40,986 bases of DNA from Candidatus Methylomirabilis sp. Lineage in GTDB: Bacteria; Patescibacteriota; DYJS01. The stretch lies in contig DYJS01000004.1 in assembly GCA_020723005.1 (NCBI GenBank), positions 1 through 40,986 of the forward strand, given 5' to 3'. Shown here piece after piece: positions 1,462-13,603 of this stretch. The notes beneath the pieces are model-generated. The model did not search any database and was not told the DNA's origin. It saw nothing but the letters and a program-made list of their open reading frames with translations. Both the position numbers and the translations under genes were made by a program. The first letter of the stretch is position 1; every line of letters starts with the position of its first letter.

Positions 1462-2856
1462 TTAGATTATTAAATTTTCTAAATCTTTATTTAAAATTTT
1501 GTGCCATTGTTTTTTTATTAATTTTTCATTTTGCAAAATCTTTTCTTGTTCTTTTATAAAATTTTCAATTCCACAAAAATCTGCAAAATCGTTTTCTGTC
1601 AATCCCTCCAACCTGTGAGCAACAAAAGATTCATTCCTTTTTTCCATAAGTTCCTTTAATTGTACAAAAAAAGATTTTTCAAATTTATTATTGTTCAAAG
1701 CATAAAATAAACATATTTTTGCAATAGAATTAAATTGTCTATTTTCATCAAATTCACTTCCCAAGATTTCTTTTATCTTAGATTTTACATCGGTAGTAAA
1801 AAATTCTTTTGCCTTTTCTATTAAAAAACCTCTTTCATCAGTCCATTTAAACTTATAGTTTTTTTCTAAATAAAAATTTACAAAATTATCCCATAAATTA
1901 TAAATTCTAGCAACTGCATCTGTAAATCTTCTCTGTTTGAAATAAATTTTTGTTCCAATCCAAAGATGAAAAATTTTGATTTCAGTTTTTTCAAAGTCTT
2001 CCAAGCTTGATAAGAATTTCAATTTCTCTTTTTTAGAATGTAGTTTTTCTTGTAAAATTTTTGCAGATTCTAAATCAAAAAACAAAATCGAATTTACAAA
2101 TTTTAAAACATTCAAAATTGTTTCTTTATTTGTAAACTCTGCATTTGAATCTTCTAAAATTGATATCGCTGAAGAATACTCATATTTTTTAATCAATTTC
2201 AAAATTGCATCTTGAACAAAATATTTTTTAACTGTATTCTCATAATCAATATAAAAAACTTTTCCATCATCACTAATTCTGCAAACCGATAAATTTTTTA
2301 TCCATTTTACAGCATTTAAAAACAAAGCATTGTTTAGTGCAGGAATCCCAGCAGAGATCAAAATTGTTGTTTCTATATTTTTTAAATTGTATCTTCTTAT
2401 TAAACTTTCATAAAATTCAAAAACTTTTTCCTCATCACTTGTATTAAAATTCACCTCTTCTAAAAAAATCTTACTTTTTTCTCCAAAGATTTTTTCTATT
2501 ATTTTACCTTCAAAAATTGTATCTGAATTACGAAAATTATCTCTTGCATCAATCTGATTTGTTGAAACAATTATTATATCAGAAAATTTCTCCTTTAATT
2601 TAGAAATAATTTCCAAATTTAAATTTTCTTTATATTTATCAAAATTTTTAAAAATTATTTCTGTAATTTCTTTAAATTTTTTTTCACTATCCACAATTTC
2701 CCCTGTTCTTAAATCCTCTCTTTGTTCAAAAAATTCAGGATAAAGTTTTTTAAACTCCAATCTATTGTTTTTATTCAAGTTTTTTCCACCTAAATAAAAT
2801 TTAGAAATTGTTAAATCGCTATTTCCAATATTCGCTATTAAAATTTTTTTTTTCAT
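1462..2856 (-). CDS. csm6: CARF-HEPN cOA-activated ribonuclease (Csm6/Csx1-like)
   Basis: N-terminal CARF-like motifs (ILIANIGNSD, STNQ..SDT, SAGIPA), helical middle region, C-terminal HEPN-like RNESFVAH; lies between cas6 and cas1. Confidence 0.8.
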   Translation of the reverse strand: MKKKILIANIGNSDLTISKFYLGGKNLNKNNRLEFKKLYPEFFEQREDLRTGEIVDSEKKFKEITEIIFKNFDKYKENLNLEIISKLKEKFSDIIIVSTNQIDARDNFRNSDTIFEGKIIEKIFGEKSKIFLEEVNFNTSDEEKVFEFYESLIRRYNLKNIETTILISAGIPALNNALFLNAVKWIKNLSVCRISDDGKVFYIDYENTVKKYFVQDAILKLIKKYEYSSAISILEDSNAEFTNKETILNVLKFVNSILFFDLESAKILQEKLHSKKEKLKFLSSLEDFEKTEIKIFHLWIGTKIYFKQRRFTDAVARIYNLWDNFVNFYLEKNYKFKWTDERGFLIEKAKEFFTTDVKSKIKEILGSEFDENRQFNSIAKICLFYALNNNKFEKSFFVQLKELMEKRNESFVAHRLEGLTENDFADFCGIENFIKEQEKILQNEKLIKKQWHKILNKDLENLII

Positions 2857-2860
2857 ATTT

Positions 2861-3625
2861 TTAATTTAATTTTTTAAATTTTACATTTCCAAAACCAAAA
2901 TTTGTTTTATTTCCAACTCCAAAAAAATCGGAAGTTTTTGCAAGAAGTGCAACAAAATTTTTTAATTTAAAATTTTTTTCATCAATATTTCTAAATTCAA
3001 AAATTGATTCACCAACAAAACCTTCAATAGAAAAATTTCTAAACTTTTTCTTTCTCGTTTCAATTTTAGAAGAAATTTGAAAAAGATTTTTATCAATAAA
3101 ATTTTCAAAATCTCTCTTTTTTTCTTCTTCAAATTTAACTAAATTTGTTTTTAAAAATTTTTTCAAAAGGGAGTTAAAAATTCTTTTCTTTTCTGGAATA
3201 GAAATAATTTCATCACCATTTTTAAAGAAAGTTGGAGAAAAAAATTTGAGAGAAAATGAATTTGTTTCTTTCGCTAAATTTTCCAAAAATTCTAAAGTTG
3301 CAAACTGAGCAAAACGATTAGAAAGATGATTTGTAAAAACTTGTAAAATTTTTATCTTCTCTTTTCCAACAAAAATTTCTTTATTGATGAAAGAAGAAAG
3401 GATCTCTCCTAAAAATTCATCTCCAAAAAAACCAAATTTTATAAAAAATTTTTCATCTTCTACAAAAAATGGAGAGATTGAAAAAGGTTTTCTTTGTTCA
3501 TGAATTTGTGAAGAGATTTCTTTTGGTAAAACCTTTAGAAATGCGGAAAAAAATTGATATCCAGAAAATTTTTTGTCGATTTGAAAAACTATATTGTAAA
3601 ACATTTTGTAAAAACTATTTTTCAA
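2861..3625 (-). CDS. cas6: crRNA-processing endoribonuclease Cas6
   Basis: KPFSISP, FFSPTFFK and the C-terminal G-loop GVGNKTNFGFG. Alternative ATG at 3604. Confidence 0.92.
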   Translation of the reverse strand: MKNSFYKMFYNIVFQIDKKFSGYQFFSAFLKVLPKEISSQIHEQRKPFSISPFFVEDEKFFIKFGFFGDEFLGEILSSFINKEIFVGKEKIKILQVFTNHLSNRFAQFATLEFLENLAKETNSFSLKFFSPTFFKNGDEIISIPEKKRIFNSLLKKFLKTNLVKFEEEKKRDFENFIDKNLFQISSKIETRKKKFRNFSIEGFVGESIFEFRNIDEKNFKLKNFVALLAKTSDFFGVGNKTNFGFGNVKFKKLN

Positions 3626-3718: not shown

Positions 3719-4711
3719 TTAACTTATTTTTGCTTTTAATGTAAAAGCAGTTGCATTTTGAATCACTTTTTCATTTACGGAGATATTTTTCAAAATTTTA
3801 CCAAGATAATTTTTATTTTCATAATTTTCTCTCTCTTTATCGTTTTTAAAATCTAACACACTTCCAGCAGAAAAAAATAAAATTGGTTTTTTAAAAGGAT
3901 TCTGAGAATTAGAAAACTCTTCTCCAAGTTTTCCATATTTCACAAAAGTTTCCCATTTAGAATTCTCCCCAGTTGGATCACTTTTATCTGGAACAAAATT
4001 TGAAAGCGAAACAACAGAATTATAATCTTGTAAATTTTCTAAATCATTAAAACCAGAAAACTCTTCAAATTTTGGATCTTCCAAAACTCCCATTCCAACA
4101 GATTTTTTCTTTCCAAAACCAGACTCAAAAGATTTTTTTAAATTTTCTTCAACTTCATATAATTCAAAATTTTCTTGATCTAAAATTTTTATAAAAAACA
4201 CAATTCTCATATTTTTTACAAAATATCTTGGAGTTGTTGAAAAAAGTTTTTTTCCTTCAACTGCAATTCCACTTTCTCTGCTAATTTCTACCTGAGTTTT
4301 TAAATCTTCTTCAAAAAAATTTGGAATTTCTAATTTTTCAAAACATTCTTTTGCTTCTTCTAATTTTTTAGAAACAAGATACTTAAAAATCTCTAAATTT
4401 ACAAATTTTTTCTTTTTTAACTCTTTTCCGTTTAGCTTATTTTTAATCCTCTCTAATTTCTCTTCATTTTTTTCAAAAGGAATATGTATCATAGGTTTTG
4501 GCAAGAAAATATCATTTTCATTTTCATAAAATCCATTTGAAATTGTAAAAATCGGTTTTTTTTCAAAATCTTGCAAAAATCCTTCTAAATCTTTTTCAGA
4601 TAAATTTCTTGAAAGTTCCCACACAAAATGCCCAAAAATTGTATCACTATAAAAATCTGTAAGAAATCCAGATTTTGGAGAGAAAGATAGTTTATAAATT
4701 TTATTTGTCAT
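3719..4711 (-). CDS. csm4: Type III-A Csm4 (Cas5-group RAMP)
   Basis: SDTIFGHF, FTISNGF, FLPKP, GFGKKKSVGMG and FSAGSV motifs. Confidence 0.92.
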   Translation of the reverse strand: MTNKIYKLSFSPKSGFLTDFYSDTIFGHFVWELSRNLSEKDLEGFLQDFEKKPIFTISNGFYENENDIFLPKPMIHIPFEKNEEKLERIKNKLNGKELKKKKFVNLEIFKYLVSKKLEEAKECFEKLEIPNFFEEDLKTQVEISRESGIAVEGKKLFSTTPRYFVKNMRIVFFIKILDQENFELYEVEENLKKSFESGFGKKKSVGMGVLEDPKFEEFSGFNDLENLQDYNSVVSLSNFVPDKSDPTGENSKWETFVKYGKLGEEFSNSQNPFKKPILFFSAGSVLDFKNDKERENYENKNYLGKILKNISVNEKVIQNATAFTLKAKIS

Positions 4712-5066
4712 TGGAATATTTTAATCCATCTGATTCTAAAATTTCTCCCAAAATTATACCATTTTGTTTTGCTTCTAAAACAGAATTTCTTAAAGATGCA
4801 GGATCTTTTTTTGAAATTATTACATCAGATCCAACAATTTTTAAATTCTTAGGAAGTTTTGTAAAACCAGATTCTGCAATAATCATCTTTCCTCGAACGA
4901 TTTCAAGGTTTGGAAATGAATTTTCTGACATATTTCTATTTCCAGCACAATTCAAATCTCCACCTATTTCTTTTAAATTACTTATTATTGTTGCATTTTT
5001 TTGGTTTTTGTTTTCTTCATCTTTTCTTCTGAAAATTTTAATTAAAAATTGTATAATGTTTTTCAT
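4701..5066 (-). CDS. Hypothetical 121-aa protein with three LRR/L-domain-like repeats inside the csm operon
   Basis: ATG start, co-oriented, 11-nt overlap with the csm4 start; repeats NLKEIGGDLNC / PNLEIVRGKMII / KNLKIVGSDVII; amphipathic basic N-terminus. Confidence 0.75.
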   Translation of the reverse strand: MKNIIQFLIKIFRRKDEENKNQKNATIISNLKEIGGDLNCAGNRNMSENSFPNLEIVRGKMIIAESGFTKLPKNLKIVGSDVIISKKDPASLRNSVLEAKQNGIILGEILESDGLKYSNDK

Positions 5067-5095
5067 ATTTAATAATTTAATCTTTTAAATCAATT

Positions 5096-6019
5096 TTAAT
5101 TTATTTTAACTTTACACCAACCTAAATGATTTTTATTTTCATCTATAAATGCTGTATGAACATTTTGATTTGAATCATTTCTCGATCTTGGAGATTGTGC
5201 ATCTGTAAATATTTTAAAATAACTTGTTCCACCAAATCCTAAATTTAATATAAATTCATCTTTTTTTAAATTTTGTAAATTAGTTTCAATTTTTTTTAAA
5301 GATTGATAAAAATGATTTTCAAAAACATTAAACCTATTTAATTTTAAAAAATTCTCTAATCCTTTTTTAGCTTTTTCTAACTCTTTACGATAATAATTTT
5401 TAGATTTTTCATTCAAATATAAAATTTGGTTTGAGATATCGTTTAAAACTTCAACTTCAAAAGACTCTCCTACTTTCAGATTTATTGCATAAACATCAAT
5501 CCATTGATTGTTTCTTTTTCCTCTATTTAAAATTTCCACATTCATTTGACCTGCTTTTAAAAAACTATCTCTCATAATTATTTTTGAAAAAGCAGGGTTG
5601 TCGCTAGAGCTTCTTTTCTCTAAAATAGTCAAAAGTGCACCTTTCACACTACTTGCAGGAATATAAAAATTGCCATTTTGATTTGGAAACTCTTTTACTT
5701 CTAAATTGCCATTCAAATTTAGATTATTATATTTTCTCAAAAACATTTCTGAAACAGATATTTTAAAATCAGAAACATCGTCTAAATTTAAATTTTTGTT
5801 TCCAAAAAATTTGAAAAAATAATTTTGAATAGCTCTTACACTTTGATTTTTTCCAATTTCAAAATAACTATATTTTTTTAAAATTTTTTTATGATTTAAT
5901 CTAAAAAATTGATTTTCTTTTTCTGTAACAATGTAATCAATTCCAAAAACAAGTTTATTTCCTGTAGAGATATGAATTGGTGTCAAAGTTTCAAATTGTA
6001 AAATAATTTTATTTTTCAT
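5096..6019 (-). CDS. csm5: Type III-A Csm5 (Cas7-group RAMP)
   Basis: TLTPIHISTG, YIPASSVKGAL, LGFGG and terminal LGWCKV; ATGA overlap with csm3. Confidence 0.88.
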   Translation of the reverse strand: MKNKIILQFETLTPIHISTGNKLVFGIDYIVTEKENQFFRLNHKKILKKYSYFEIGKNQSVRAIQNYFFKFFGNKNLNLDDVSDFKISVSEMFLRKYNNLNLNGNLEVKEFPNQNGNFYIPASSVKGALLTILEKRSSSDNPAFSKIIMRDSFLKAGQMNVEILNRGKRNNQWIDVYAINLKVGESFEVEVLNDISNQILYLNEKSKNYYRKELEKAKKGLENFLKLNRFNVFENHFYQSLKKIETNLQNLKKDEFILNLGFGGTSYFKIFTDAQSPRSRNDSNQNVHTAFIDENKNHLGWCKVKIN

Positions 6020-6630
6020 TTTTTCTCAACTAATTCCAAAATTTCAACTGCACCATATCCACGACTTCCAGAACCTCCTAAATAATCATTTTTCAAAAGC
6101 TCAAAACCTTCTTTTATCAATTTTAGGCTTTTCTCCAAATCATCATCGGTTTCTCCTCGCAAAATTATCTCTATTTCAAATTGGACATCTTTCGGAACTC
6201 TTTCAATAAATCTTGGACCAGCTCCACTTGCTGTGCCAGTTAATCTATCGATACTAACCTCTGCTTTAATTTCATTTTCAATTTCTTCATTTTCATATTT
6301 TTTCTTCCATTCTTCTGTTAGATGTGCATCTCTGAAAATCACTTTTGTATATTTTTTGTTTTCGTTCTCTGTTTTATCTCCACCAGAACCAAAAACTTCA
6401 GCAACCTCTCCGGTTTTTGAAGGGTTACCATTTTTGAAAAGATTTTTTTCTATTTCTAAAAGCGATCTAATTTTTCCTTTCAAACTACTTCCAGGAATAT
6501 ATGGAAGTTTTGAAATTGGATCTTTTACAACATAGCTATCAATTCCTCCGATTTTAAACTGATCGTTTCCTGATCCAATATGAAGACCGGTTTTAACGAT
6601 TAAAATTATTTTATAAATTTTTCTTTTCAT
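6016..6630 (-). CDS. csm3: Type III-A Csm3 (Cas7 backbone RNase)
   Basis: TGLHIGSG, IGGIDS (catalytic Asp retained), PYIPGSSLKGKIRSLLE and YLGGSGSRGYG. Confidence 0.97.
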   Translation of the reverse strand: MKRKIYKIILIVKTGLHIGSGNDQFKIGGIDSYVVKDPISKLPYIPGSSLKGKIRSLLEIEKNLFKNGNPSKTGEVAEVFGSGGDKTENENKKYTKVIFRDAHLTEEWKKKYENEEIENEIKAEVSIDRLTGTASGAGPRFIERVPKDVQFEIEIILRGETDDDLEKSLKLIKEGFELLKNDYLGGSGSRGYGAVEILELVEKK

Positions 6631-6639
6631 AGTTTTAAT

Positions 6640-7266
6640 TTAATCTCTTTTATATTTTGAAAAATAACCAACCAAAGAAAGCATATGCTGATAAAACATC
6701 TCTAAATTTTTTGAGAAATTTTCATCTTGAGATTTGGTAATTATATCAATTCTGTTTCTAAAAATTTCCTTAAATTCCTCTGAAGCTTCTTTTGAGTATT
6801 CAGAAAGAGCAAGAAGAATAAATAACTTCTGTTTAGCAGTTTCTATATTTCCATTTTTTCGAAAATTTTCATAAATTTTAACTATTTCATCATAAAATTT
6901 CCTAAGTTGATTATTTTTCATTCCAGATTTTGCAAGAATGCTTGCTAAATTATCAACATTTCCATAACCATCTGGAGATATAAGCCATTCAAAAATACCT
7001 TCTTCGTCAAAAAAACTATCGATTAAAAAATCTTTCATTTCAAAAAATATTTTTGTAATTAGTCTGTCTCCAAAATTTCTAGGAAAATTAAATCTTTTTT
7101 CTTTTAAATTTTCTTCTGATTCTAAAAGAATTTTAAATTTTCTATATTGACCATAAATTTCTGAAACATCTATTATATTACCTAATTTTTGAAAATATTC
7201 ACAAATATTAAATTTTTGTAAATTTCTATCAATTCTTTCTAATATAATTTTATATTTATATTTCAT
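6640..7266 (-). CDS. csm2: Csm2 small subunit with an extra N-terminal RRM-like domain
   Basis: C-terminal ~130 aa has NQLRKFYDEI and a terminal SLVGYF motif; start overlaps the cas10 stop (ATGA); 208 aa is longer than typical Csm2. Confidence 0.85.
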   Translation of the reverse strand: MKYKYKIILERIDRNLQKFNICEYFQKLGNIIDVSEIYGQYRKFKILLESEENLKEKRFNFPRNFGDRLITKIFFEMKDFLIDSFFDEEGIFEWLISPDGYGNVDNLASILAKSGMKNNQLRKFYDEIVKIYENFRKNGNIETAKQKLFILLALSEYSKEASEEFKEIFRNRIDIITKSQDENFSKNLEMFYQHMLSLVGYFSKYKRD

Positions 7267-9896
7267 TTTCTTAAATTTAATATTACAAATTTTAAAAGCG
7301 ATAAAATATAATTATCTACAAAATTTTTTGATGAGATATCGGTTAATTGATTGCAAAAATCAAAAACTTCTTTTTGCAAAGAATCCTTTAATTCCCCTTG
7401 TCTGTTTTTAAACTCCCTTTCAATTTTGTAAGTTAAAATTGGGTGCCAAATCATTTTTCTAGAGTCTTTTTTCTTTCCTTTCTCTTCAGATTCTTTTTTT
7501 AAAATCATTAAATCATGCAAATCCCGTAGTATTCCAGAACTCATTTTTGGTTTATTTTCCAAATTTTTATCATAATTTTTTCTCCATACAATTACATTAT
7601 TAGCTTCTTTTATAAAATCCCCCACTTCCTCATTTTTTATCACATCACCAAACAAAAATATACTTGCCTTATTTTTGGATTTATGAAAAAAATTAGAATT
7701 TTCTTTTAAGTTTGAAATATCTAATTTATCTTTCTTTGATTCTTTTTGATTTTTTTCCGAACTTTCTGCAACAAATTTTATTGGTGTAGAATGTTTAAAT
7801 GGTGTCGCACTCCAAGAGATGTGAATTTCTGGATTATTGCAAACAAATTTTTCAAATTCTTTATTCAAGTCATCAATCAAATTTAAAAAAGTTTTAGTTT
7901 CATCCTTTTCTCCGTTTCTATCATTTTTAATTTCGTCATTATTTACAAAAAATGGAGAAATCAAAAACAGATCATCTCCACCTGCATAAATTGTGTAAGT
8001 TTTTGGATAATTTTCTTTTAGCCAAAAATTTAGATACTCTGAAAAGAAAGTTTTTAAAAGATCTGACATCTGAGTGATTCGAGAAAGTGTAAAAAGATCT
8101 CTATTTTGAAAATCTTGAGATTTTTCATTTATTGTCCCAGAACTATAATATTCTTTGTTGTCTTGAATCAATGTTTTTTCATTTTGAGACAAAAGATCTG
8201 TTTTTTCATCAACTCTTAATCCTTCTGCAAAAAGTAATCCCAAATTATCAATATCTCCACGAATAGCGATTAAAGGTTTTTCTTCTGCCAATTTTTCAAA
8301 ATCAACAACTTCGTTTAATCCTTCTTTTGTTGTTAAAACATAATTTGCAACATTCAAAAACCTTGTATTTTGCAATTTTTTAATCTCTTCTCCTTCGCTG
8401 TTCTCATTTTTTCTTCCATCTTTTGCCTTTTCAAAAATTTTTTCACGATCTGGATTTATTAAAAGTCTTCTAAAGTTTTCTTTTTTTAAAAAAGAGATCT
8501 CAATTTTTTCATCAAATGAATAAAAAATTTCAAATTCATCTCTTACCATTTTTTCACCAAGGGAAATTTCTAAAAAACAATTTTCACAAATTTTCTTCTC
8601 TCCATTTTCCTCTTGAAGAGTTTTTGATAATTTCTTTGGTTTTTTACAGATTGGACATTTTATATTTTCAAAATCTTCAATATTTTTTTCAAATTCAAAA
8701 TTTCCAACAAAAACATCTTGCCAAGAATTTTCATCCTTTATTAAACTTTCAAATTGATTATTTCTTTCGTCTTGCAAATTTTCTGAAATTGATTCAAAAA
8801 TATCAAAAATATTTTCTTCGTCATCTTTTCCAGAAAAAGCATTTAATCCAAAATCTCTTGAATTCCAAATTGCAAAACGAAGTTCATAAAAATGTTTTTC
8901 TTTCAAAAAAAATTCAACTTTTTTTTTGATGTTTTTAATTAAATTATCAAAATTTTTTAAATCTGGAACAAGAATATAAAATTTCCCACCAGCTTGCATT
9001 AAAAGATTAGCTTCCGTCAAGCCAAATTCATGCAACACAACATCAGAAAAAATTTTCCCATAAATTTGAACCAAAGTACTTCTAGAGCGAAGTCTTTTTG
9101 CAACTTTCTCTCCTTCAATATCTGTAATAAATTTTTGAATTCCTAAAAAATCTCCAACTATAATTTTAAATTTAGTACATTCAATTTTTCTTTCTTTATC
9201 TTCCAATTTCCATTTATAAATACAATGAGAAATTGCAGAAACATCTTTAGAGTGTGTAAAAAGAGAGATATCAGTTTTTTCATTTCCTGTAAAATCTGGA
9301 ATGCTCCAAGTGTAAGTTTTTAAAACTTCTAACAAAAAAGAAATGATATCTTCAAAATTTGTGAAAGTAGAAATTGATTCTAAAGATTTTAACAATTCTT
9401 CAAAAGAAAAATAATGAGTTTGTAAAATGTTATTTTTTTCTTTTGGAATAATTTTTGAAATTTCAAATTTTGATTGATCAAAAAATTTGGTTTCTAATTC
9501 ACTTTGAAAATCTGGATGAATTTTTGTTTTTGAAAAAATTGAAGCCAAAAATCTATGAGAAAAATCTTTAAATTTCCCGTTCTCTGTTTCAACATATTGC
9601 AAATCTTCTCTTTCTGATGCATTTCCATGATCTGCAATCTTTATAATTTGAGTAAAAAGATCTAAATTTTTTTCTTTTGAGTGATGATTTTTAATTATTT
9701 CTAAAAATTTCGAAAAGTTTTCTTCTTTATCTTTATCTTCTAAAATTTTTTTAAAAGTTTCTTTTAAAGAATTTACAAAATCAACTCCAAAATCTGAGTG
9801 AGATTTTTGTTTCGTTTTCTCTGCTCGTTGTTTAAATTTTCCAATATCATGAAAAAGTGATCCAAGAATCAAAATTTTTTCATTAATATTCAACAA
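7263..9896 (-). CDS. cas10: Cas10/Csm1 with HD nuclease and Palm cyclase domains
   Basis: LFHDIGK (HD), GDFLGIQKFI, CPIC/CENC zinc finger, RGDIDNLG and YAGGDDL; TTG start. Confidence 0.97.
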   Translation of the reverse strand: MLNINEKILILGSLFHDIGKFKQRAEKTKQKSHSDFGVDFVNSLKETFKKILEDKDKEENFSKFLEIIKNHHSKEKNLDLFTQIIKIADHGNASEREDLQYVETENGKFKDFSHRFLASIFSKTKIHPDFQSELETKFFDQSKFEISKIIPKEKNNILQTHYFSFEELLKSLESISTFTNFEDIISFLLEVLKTYTWSIPDFTGNEKTDISLFTHSKDVSAISHCIYKWKLEDKERKIECTKFKIIVGDFLGIQKFITDIEGEKVAKRLRSRSTLVQIYGKIFSDVVLHEFGLTEANLLMQAGGKFYILVPDLKNFDNLIKNIKKKVEFFLKEKHFYELRFAIWNSRDFGLNAFSGKDDEENIFDIFESISENLQDERNNQFESLIKDENSWQDVFVGNFEFEKNIEDFENIKCPICKKPKKLSKTLQEENGEKKICENCFLEISLGEKMVRDEFEIFYSFDEKIEISFLKKENFRRLLINPDREKIFEKAKDGRKNENSEGEEIKKLQNTRFLNVANYVLTTKEGLNEVVDFEKLAEEKPLIAIRGDIDNLGLLFAEGLRVDEKTDLLSQNEKTLIQDNKEYYSSGTINEKSQDFQNRDLFTLSRITQMSDLLKTFFSEYLNFWLKENYPKTYTIYAGGDDLFLISPFFVNNDEIKNDRNGEKDETKTFLNLIDDLNKEFEKFVCNNPEIHISWSATPFKHSTPIKFVAESSEKNQKESKKDKLDISNLKENSNFFHKSKNKASIFLFGDVIKNEEVGDFIKEANNVIVWRKNYDKNLENKPKMSSGILRDLHDLMILKKESEEKGKKKDSRKMIWHPILTYKIEREFKNRQGELKDSLQKEVFDFCNQLTDISSKNFVDNYILSLLKFVILNLRK

Positions 9897-12089: not shown

Positions 12090-13466
12090 TTATTTCCCTA
12101 TACAAAAGTTATGAAAAACTGAATCCAAAATATCTGGTTTAAATTTTTCACCTAAAAGCTCTGAAATTTCATCTAATGCAATTTTCAAGTTTTCTGCAAT
12201 TAGTTCAAGATTTTTCTCTTTTTTTGCAAGATTTAAAGATGAAAAAATTTCAAAAAGCTTCTCTTTTTGTCTCTCTGTGGAAACAATTATACTTTCTTCA
12301 GAAATTTTATCTTCTCCAATCAATTTTTCATAAATTTTTCTTTTGAGATCTTCTATATTTTTTTGAAATTTTACAGAGATCAAAGAAATAGAATTTTTTG
12401 AAAATTTTTTCTCTTCAAAAAATTTTTCAACATCTTTTTTAAAAGAAAAATCTTCATTGTCTATTTTATTTATGACGAATATAAAGTTTTTTATTGAAAG
12501 TTTTAAAGTTTCAAAAATTTTCATAGAGTCTAAAAAATTTTCTTGATCCAAAACCCAAAGCACAACATCAGAAAAACTAATCTCTTCTTTTGATTTTGCA
12601 ATTCCAAAGTTTTCAATTGGATCGGAAGAATTTTCATTTATTCCTGCTGTATCAACCAAAATTATTGGAAGTCCAAAAAGATCAATTTTTGATTCAATCG
12701 TATCTCTCGTTGTTCCCGGAATGTTCGTAACAATCGCTTTTTCCTTTCCAACAAAAAAATTGAAAAGTGAAGATTTTCCAGAATTTGGAAGGCCTGCCAA
12801 AACAACTTTCGCACCTTGTTCCAAAATTTTTCCAATTTTATATGTAGAAATTGTTTTTTCAATCTCTTCTAAAACTTCTTCCAAAATTTTTTTGTTTTCT
12901 GGAAGATCAAAAATTGGCAAATCGTCTTTATCATAAAAATCTAAATTAGCTTCAACCTCTGCTAAAAACTTTGTAATAATTTTTTTCCACTCAAAAATTT
13001 TTTTTGAAAAACCACCTGATAAATTTTCCAAAGATTTTTTTGTTGCAAAATTAGTTGTTGAATGAATGAGATTTGCAACAGATTCTGCTTGAACAAGATC
13101 TATTTTTCCATTTAAAAAAGCTCGTTTAGTAAATTCTCCGGGCTCTGCAATTCTTGCTCCTTTTGAAATTAAAAGAGATAAAATTCTATTTAAAATTATT
13201 GTGTTTCCATGAACCTGAAATTCAACCAAATCTTCTCCCGTATAACTTTTAGGAGATACAAAAAAAATTATTATTCCAGTTTCTACTTTTTCACTTTTAT
13301 CAAAAATATCTGAAATGTGAGCAAATCTTGGTTTTATATCTTTTATTTTTGTAATGCTTTTTGCAATTTTAAAAGAAAGATTTCCTGAAATTCTAACAAT
13401 TCCAATTCCAGAAGTTCCAATTGGTGTAGAAATTGCACAAATTGTATCTGATAAAAAACTTTTTAT
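12090..13466 (-). CDS. mnmE: tRNA modification GTPase MnmE; real start is upstream of the ORF track call
   Basis: Frame stays open from 13229 up to 13475, encoding DTICAISTPIGTSGIGIVRISG and PKSYTGED; also GLPNSGKSS, IPGTTRD, DTAG, NKID and terminal FCIGK. No in-frame ATG/GTG/TTG upstream; ATA at 13464-13466 is the proposed start. Confidence 0.93.
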   Translation of the reverse strand: MKSFLSDTICAISTPIGTSGIGIVRISGNLSFKIAKSITKIKDIKPRFAHISDIFDKSEKVETGIIIFFVSPKSYTGEDLVEFQVHGNTIILNRILSLLISKGARIAEPGEFTKRAFLNGKIDLVQAESVANLIHSTTNFATKKSLENLSGGFSKKIFEWKKIITKFLAEVEANLDFYDKDDLPIFDLPENKKILEEVLEEIEKTISTYKIGKILEQGAKVVLAGLPNSGKSSLFNFFVGKEKAIVTNIPGTTRDTIESKIDLFGLPIILVDTAGINENSSDPIENFGIAKSKEEISFSDVVLWVLDQENFLDSMKIFETLKLSIKNFIFVINKIDNEDFSFKKDVEKFFEEKKFSKNSISLISVKFQKNIEDLKRKIYEKLIGEDKISEESIIVSTERQKEKLFEIFSSLNLAKKEKNLELIAENLKIALDEISELLGEKFKPDILDSVFHNFCIGK

Positions 13467-13603
13467 AAAATTTTTTTACAAAGTTTTTCTAAAGATTTTT
13501 TTAAAAAAATAAAAGGTGCTTTTTAAAAACTCTACAATTTTTATTTTTAAAATCATATTGAAAAGTTTAATATATCTCTTAGATAAAGTTTGGAAAAAGA
13601 TAT

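Follow-up and report, generated by a model that had tools for sequence, protein, structure and literature searches.

In most accounts, Csm2/Cas11 figures as a simple helical spacer along the target RNA. The locus described here raises the question why a csm2 gene of a type III-A system should begin 76 codons upstream of the point where a subunit of usual size would start, whether these codons are translated, and what kind of domain they would encode. The original prediction had been that an RRM-like domain is fused here to the N-terminus of Csm2. The window, i.e., the whole stretch of DNA which was analysed, contains 40,986 nucleotides and represents the first 40986 of the 55411 bases of its contig; the genome comprises 749 kb in 25 contigs, with about 25% GC. 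The standard genetic code applies: with TGA read as a sense codon, the number of ORFs of at least 500 codons rose from 109 to 111, and recoding of TGA was rejected because of this increase of merely two.

Profile searches showed a type III-A operon with the gene order cas10-csm2-csm3-csm5-orf121-csm4-cas6-csm6-cas1-cas2, encoded entirely on the reverse strand. The gene cas10/csm1 (7263..9896, 877 aa; TIGR02578, E 8.4e-115) matched the Pfam families HD, Csm1_B and Cas10 palm2, and a GGDD motif was seen in its translation. It is followed by csm2 (6640..7266), csm3, which encodes the Cas7 backbone (6016..6630; TIGR02582, E 3.5e-60), csm5 (5096..6019; TIGR01899, E 2.9e-18), orf121 (4701..5066), csm4 (Cas5; 3719..4711; TIGR01903, E 3.6e-32), cas6 (2861..3625; Pfam CRISPR_Cas6, E 1.9e-12), a csm6/csx1-like gene for a CARF-HEPN effector (1462..2856; PADLOC Csx1, E 4.5e-28, with weak Pfam matches to Csm6 HEPN and 6H), cas1 (469-1458; Pfam Cas1, E 1.7e-79) and cas2 (186-506; Pfam Cas2, E 1.7e-24). 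The usual gene order is csm3-csm4-csm5; here it reads csm3-csm5-orf121-csm4 (3719-6630, reverse strand). The product of orf121 has 121 aa and matched no NCBIfam, PADLOC or PHROG family, its sole match being a marginal one to the Pfam family Recep_L_domain (23 bits, cut-off 21.8). The frame overlaps the start of csm4 by 11 nt. Besides the extension of csm2, orf121 is a second lineage-specific addition to the effector operon.

The long csm2 ORF (6640..7266, reverse strand) encodes 208 aa plus a stop codon, according to both the ORF list and direct reading of the sequence, and the identical protein of 208 aa is present in a protein collection and in the ESM Atlas. Its codons 1-76 form the N-terminal extension (7039..7266), and residue 77 is a Met (ATG 7038-7036, i.e., codon 7036..7038), from which residues 77-208 make up 132 aa; thus, the claim of 76 extra residues before the internal Met of a 132-aa part was confirmed in frame and coordinates. 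The peptide segments on which the RRM-like layout had been based (KIILERI, QKFNICEYFQKLG, NIIDVSEI, KFKILLES, EENLKE and DRLITK) were all found as quoted. The junction between cas10 and csm2 reads ...AGAAAATGAAATAT..., where the ATG of csm2 (7266-7264) and the TGA of cas10 (7265-7263) share the four nucleotides ATGA (7263..7266). The same arrangement occurs at the csm3/csm5 junction (6016-6019). The extension is in frame and coupled to cas10 by this overlap, which had been cited in favour of the long form, and it is very probably translated. AAA follows the ATG of the long form as well as that of Met77, and most starts in the operon likewise read ATGAAA.

The larger part of the protein is Csm2. 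Pfam family Csm2_III-A (PF03750) matched residues 105-206 only, with 39.4 bits at a cut-off of 24.8, TIGR01870 matched residues 117-205 with 38.2 bits (cut-off 30.6), and six PADLOC models for Csm2 matched the protein. AlphaFold2, run with a 23-sequence alignment, predicted residues 80-208 at pLDDT values of 93-98, and the top Foldseek rows for this part were all Csm2 chains of solved Csm complexes. Superposition with Csm2 of T. onnurineus by VIA-align gave Z scores of 13.3-13.4 and an rmsd of 2.1-2.2 for 128-130 aligned residues, to be read with the caveat that helical bundles can reach a Z score of about 13 by chance; ranks 1-29 were all Csm2 chains, and unrelated chains began at Z 8.9. Residues 78-208 (6643..7035) are thereby shown to be a canonical Csm2/Cas11 helical bundle of type III-A. 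The profile matches, the helical bundle and the position between cas10 and csm3 are common to this part and to canonical Csm2 (PF03750, TIGR01870; S. epidermidis, S. thermophilus and T. onnurineus), whereas the 76 additional N-terminal residues have no relative, and the nearest relatives possess only 125-172 aa. For S. epidermidis, PMC6468305 describes a Csm2 built of helices alone, of which the minor filament contains several copies. The earlier statement that Csm2 is normally all-helical agrees with that paper and with the fold matches of the core.

Where the subunit started originally can be estimated from its relatives. An exhaustive search of 1.84 billion representatives yielded 24 proteins at E <= 0.001, including the query itself. 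In none of the 23 non-self matches does the alignment begin before query residue 54, and in 18 it begins at residue 70 or beyond. A scan of genome contigs gave 38 loci, 19 of which were examined; 18 of these were from Ignavibacteria, Melioribacteraceae and Bacteroidota, with Csm2 proteins of 125-172 aa. Eight of the 18 Ignavibacteria-type proteins have 138 aa and start with M-x-x-x-x-I-x-S/T-F-F/Y-D, which matches M77-KDFLIDSFFD of the present protein. The alignment column of Met77 is that of the initiator Met of P0008, and P0002 starts one column later. When 400 genomes of the phylum were sampled, this clade of Csm2 was detected in four others; in G001, the sole genome of the same order among those four, cas10 is immediately followed by a csm2 of about 139 aa. 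Judged by eye from the C-termini, Cas10 appears to end here at a position homologous to that of its relatives. On these alignments, residues 1-76 represent a lineage-specific insertion between the stop codon of cas10 and the ancestral start of csm2. Met77 would be a credible second start, since it aligns with the initiator Met of the short relatives.

Two side observations were made on these genomes. The operon of G001 (locus L002 on C10) looks degraded, with an interrupted cas10, whose frames break off at 1085 and continue at 1214-1504, and a csm5 consisting of a 70-aa fragment. The closest relatives of the Csm2 (L014-L031) are found in MAGs of Ignavibacteria and Melioribacteraceae, which, together with the presence of the clade in just four of the 400 sampled genomes of its own phylum, suggests a horizontal transfer of the system.

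Are the inserted codons read? The extension consists of 228 nt with about 16% GC, and none of 20000 mononucleotide shuffles was free of stop codons in frame; the other five frames contain 8, 12, 8, 3 and 6 stops. From genome composition alone, 76 open codons would arise with a probability of about 0.0012. Because the frame is open in DNA of such low GC content, with the other frames rich in stops, the extension is taken to be translated, with good confidence. GC contents at the three codon positions were 0.276/0.184/0.026, a decrease which real genes also show (0.407/0.304/0.15). With a codon score of 0.238, the extension was above 84% of 492 shadow ORFs and at the 18th percentile of 991 pieces of real genes, close to the Csm2 core (0.325) and to csm5 (0.245). 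The codon score lends modest support to coding. If the extension were untranslated, a non-coding gap of 225 nt would result, the largest in a tightly packed operon. No terminator-like site was found in 6500-7500, and a promoter scan gave 8 sites versus 5.6 +/- 2.0 expected. All sampled 31-mers of region 6000-8000 were also present in contigs assembled independently from a single DNA run, which may be that of the source sample; thus, the junction is not peculiar to one assembly.

Set against this evidence, it appears quite unlikely that translation proceeds from Met77 only and that the upstream 228 nt were inserted recently in frame, or serve as a leader which gives rise to no stable protein. 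Such an explanation would account for the agreement of Met77 with the start of P0008 and of 8 of the 18 Ignavibacteria-type proteins (with P0002 one column later), and it is compatible with the AAA after both ATGs, which resembles most starts of the operon, with the lack of any homologue of residues 1-76, and with the low confidence of AlphaFold2 in that region. It does not fit well with a 76-codon frame which no shuffle at 16% GC kept open, with a long-form ATG lying exactly on the stop codon of cas10, with a codon score and an order GC1>GC2>GC3 which resemble those of real genes, or with the compact domain obtained by the language-model fold. Translation from the long-form ATG is therefore preferred. 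In this genome, 30 of 427 starts of long ORFs (7%) were preceded by a Shine-Dalgarno sequence, as compared with 7.9% in control random 17-mers, i.e., there was no enrichment; since the genome lacks a Shine-Dalgarno signal, coupling of stop and start would be the obvious route to the long form.

Residues 1-76 are an orphan, found in one genome only. A word-indexed search of a set of 5.8 billion proteins returned the query alone as true match among 13 candidates, and no relative was found in the 1.84 billion protein representatives. Pfam gave no family at E <= 10 for residues 1-94, comparison with PDB sequences nothing significant for residues 1-76, and a feature search of the ESM Atlas no usable match. 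In the own genome a single match was obtained (E 0.0137), which is broken by two stops; in the 400 genomes of the phylum, 29 had matches with E <= 1, the best per genome being 0.0087, which was read as chance level. A scan of metagenome contigs produced 158 pattern matches and no relative of residues 1-76. The match to phrog_21383 had an E value of 0.004 over 33 residues. BLASTP of the extension against Cas2 of the same locus gave E 13. Two candidates were pursued and dropped: a phage link was considered unsupported, the tblastn matches to five hypothetical proteins of Streptomyces phages having E values of 0.3-0.5, an identity of 21/66 and no Pfam family; and the H/ACA subunit Gar1 was matched among PDB sequences at E 0.44, and its profile (PF04410) found nothing in the genome at E <= 10. 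The extension has a net charge of +5 and contains 43% hydrophobic or aromatic residues, compared with 11-26% in low-complexity leaders of the relatives; this composition is weak evidence of folding, since AT-rich DNA leads to peptides rich in K, N, I, F and Y in any frame.

The fold of the extension was approached by modelling. For the exact protein of 208 aa, the ESM Atlas model has a pTM of 0.73 and a pLDDT of 0.82. Atlas neighbours of residues 1-80 include six rows of RRM proteins (RRM_1 clusters), with TM scores by query of 0.65-0.72 and 72-79 aligned residues, and also an ACT row with a TM of 0.72, tying with the best RRM row; the scores refer to a piece of 80 residues, and the tool warns that at such a size a TM above 0.5 means little. 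AlphaFold2 with the 23-sequence alignment, which contains zero sequences covering residues 1-76, placed helices at 2-18, 21-27, 34-50 and 65-74, at pLDDT values of 54-71. When run with the single sequence, it gave a structure which was helical throughout, core included, at pLDDT 46, which suggests a default output. Windows of the hydrophobic moment indicated strand at 1-4 and 43-45 and helix at 20-28 and 59-70. The combination of AlphaFold prediction and structure search which had been proposed as a check was thus divided in its outcome: the Atlas neighbours of the RRM and ACT type speak for the predicted RRM-like fold, and the low-confidence helices of AlphaFold2 against it.

A purely structural role, namely extra helices which enlarge the Csm2 bundle and serve in filament packing, as in the longer Csm2 of T. 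onnurineus (187 aa), would be a direct reading of the four helices of AlphaFold2. VIA-align pairs residues 67-208 of the model with residues 45-185 of the T. onnurineus protein, so that a known Csm2 also has material ahead of the common core; helix 67-76 lines up there from about residue 45 on, and could, in these models, be part of the helical core instead of a fourth strand. Yet the pLDDT reaches just 54-71 in a region where AlphaFold2 had no aligned sequences, the helical single-sequence result at pLDDT 46 points to a default output, the alternating K-Y-K-Y-K-I of residues 2-7 scores as strand, and the ESM model disagrees, which makes this role decidedly unlikely. For the fold as such, a ferredoxin-like arrangement of residues 1-76 is estimated to be slightly more likely than not; some other fold would be a minor possibility, and a helical one seems unlikely.

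Membership in the RRM family proper is a different matter. Size, order of elements and the stretches F-x-x-L-G-x-I-x-x-V and G-D-R-L-I resemble those of RRMs, but the extension has no match to the RRM_1 profile (PF00076) at E <= 10, and the fold is not reproduced by AlphaFold2. The only match to this profile in the genome (C10:2478-2681) had 55.9 bits. It is the one bona fide RRM_1 protein of this organism (G000:C10:2478-2681, forward strand), with a Gly/Arg-rich tail and the motifs LYIGNL and KGFGFAEF. The extension showed no similarity to it (E 5.3). RNP2 has Phe or Tyr at its key position, and RNP1 has two central aromatic residues; inspected by eye, IILERI has Ile where RNP2 has Phe/Tyr, and RKFKILLE keeps F44 only. 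By our own reading, one of three canonical aromatic positions would thus be retained, and the RNP1/RNP2 pattern does not appear to be present. By its sequence, the extension does not belong to RRM_1, and its likeness to RRMs at the level of the fold comes from one predictor.

Another reading would be a translated and folded extension of a different kind, i.e., an adaptor for protein-protein contacts or a regulatory module for small ligands similar to ACT, which would dock to Cas10, Csm3, Csm5 or orf121, or sense a metabolite. The tie of the ACT cluster with the best RRM row (TM 0.72), the retention of one RNP aromatic position in three together with the silent RRM_1 profile, and the presence of orf121 (4701-5066) as a second lineage-specific gene in the operon would be in keeping with it. 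However, the ACT profile (PF01842) did not match the segment either, its sole match in the genome being a weak one (C17:41304-41408), and in relatives the corresponding site is occupied by cysteine-pair zinc ribbons or basic tails, i.e., elements which usually bind nucleic acids. Such an adaptor or sensor is rather unlikely.

The N-terminus of this Csm2 clade is variable. In the alignment of 22 relatives, the leaders which precede the column of Met77 vary from 0 to 103 aa; many are of low complexity, with N, Q, P, G and R as frequent residues, and basic tails also occur among the N-terminal add-ons. Leaders with cysteine pairs of the zinc-ribbon type were found in P0014, P0022, P0026-30, P0032-34 and the G117 locus (L058 1285-1905); in this group the ribbon is followed by a linker rich in G, S and R, and P0014, with 351 aa, combines a zinc ribbon with two Csm2 domains in tandem. 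Four other proteins (P0007, P0019, P0016 and P0025) possess N-terminal domains, about 74-103 aa long, which can be aligned with one another and have no Pfam match; they look beta-rich and similar to cold-shock/OB domains to us, although Pfam shows no such match. The proposed search for similar Csm2 fusions was thus successful insofar as relatives with other add-ons exist (zinc ribbons, domains of about 74-103 aa, basic tails). The common plan is a small module, sometimes with a linker, before a Csm2 core of the same clade; the modules themselves are unrelated in sequence to residues 1-76, and hhalign comparison with the N-terminal domains of P0007, P0016, P0019 and P0025 gave a probability of 0.1. 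A literature search at the level of titles and abstracts turned up no account of modules added to the N-terminus of a free-standing Csm2, although one may exist in print. The tolerance of such varied leaders suggests an N-terminus which lies exposed once the complex is assembled, and, by analogy with the varied add-ons of the relatives, an accessory role in binding of nucleic acids would be the most economical assumption.

As a hypothesis for fold and function, the following sequence of events may be considered. Ribosomes which end translation of cas10 at the TGA would restart on the overlapping ATG and produce the full-length Csm2. The core of this protein would stack in the minor filament as usual. 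Residues 1-76 would most likely fold as a compact alpha/beta domain with the ferredoxin shape of RRM or ACT domains, for which one predictor speaks and one against. The module would project outward from the N-terminus of Csm2 and, by analogy, could add contacts to the target RNA or its flanks; a role as a handle for nucleic acids is proposed because it sits where relatives carry zinc ribbons, small domains and basic tails. Internal initiation at Met77 may supply a short isoform in addition, and short subunits would ease the need for several Csm2 per Cas10. Taken as a whole, this reading (a translated insertion, a domain shaped like RRM or ACT, and a further handle for nucleic acids on the minor filament) is put forward tentatively, its chances being somewhat less than even.

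A more elaborate version can be imagined, although it is very unlikely to be correct in all its parts. One csm2 would give two subunits, a long one at about 1:1 with Cas10 due to the coupling, with an RRM-shaped RNA-binding head, and a short one from Met77, which fills the remaining positions; the complex would then have a single RNA handle beside Cas10, at the place where the 3'-flank is read for self and non-self. In a broader sense, interchangeable modules which bind nucleic acids (an RRM-like domain, a zinc ribbon or a beta-rich domain) would be plugged into the Csm2 N-terminus in this clade.

Related arrangements are known from other systems. In type I-D and others, small subunits are produced by internal translation within a larger gene, according to a preprint (bioRxiv 10.1101/2020.04.18.045682). 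As in those cases, the boundary of the Cas11-like part coincides here with an in-frame internal Met; the portion upstream is a large subunit there, but a module of 76 aa in the present gene, in which internal initiation may occur. Cas11 domains fused to RAMP subunits, which have an RRM fold, are described for Cas7-11 of type III-E and for variants of type III-D (PMC9629832, PMC11026444 and 10.1101/2022.06.13.496011). A Cas11-type domain is covalently joined to another effector domain there, as it is here; the partners in type III-E and III-D, however, are a full Cas7 or Cas5, whereas the module of the present protein is far smaller and without a match to RAMP profiles, and csm3, csm4 and csm5 are kept as separate genes.

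Were a small subunit to carry a folded module of its own, this would demonstrate that functions can be added to the minor filament. Viewed alongside the relatives with zinc ribbons and other domains, the protein suggests that the N-terminus of Csm2 is modular, and it would offer a natural place at which domains could be grafted onto effectors of type III. Should the module bind RNA, the affinity for targets, the reading of flanks or the activation of Cas10 could be altered. The conserved internal Met makes the use of two isoforms directly testable.

Two minor observations concern the remainder of the window. A GC-rich 25-mer, with a single copy in the genome, opens the contig (positions 1-25, forward strand) amid AT-rich DNA, just past cas2. 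Possibly, a CRISPR array which was not assembled has its border here; a simple repeat scan detected no array in any of the 25 contigs. An MnmE-like frame (12090-13532, reverse strand) is open and homologous-looking upstream of its first ATG, GTG or TTG, the listed ORF starting at 13229, which suggests that this gene uses a non-canonical start codon.
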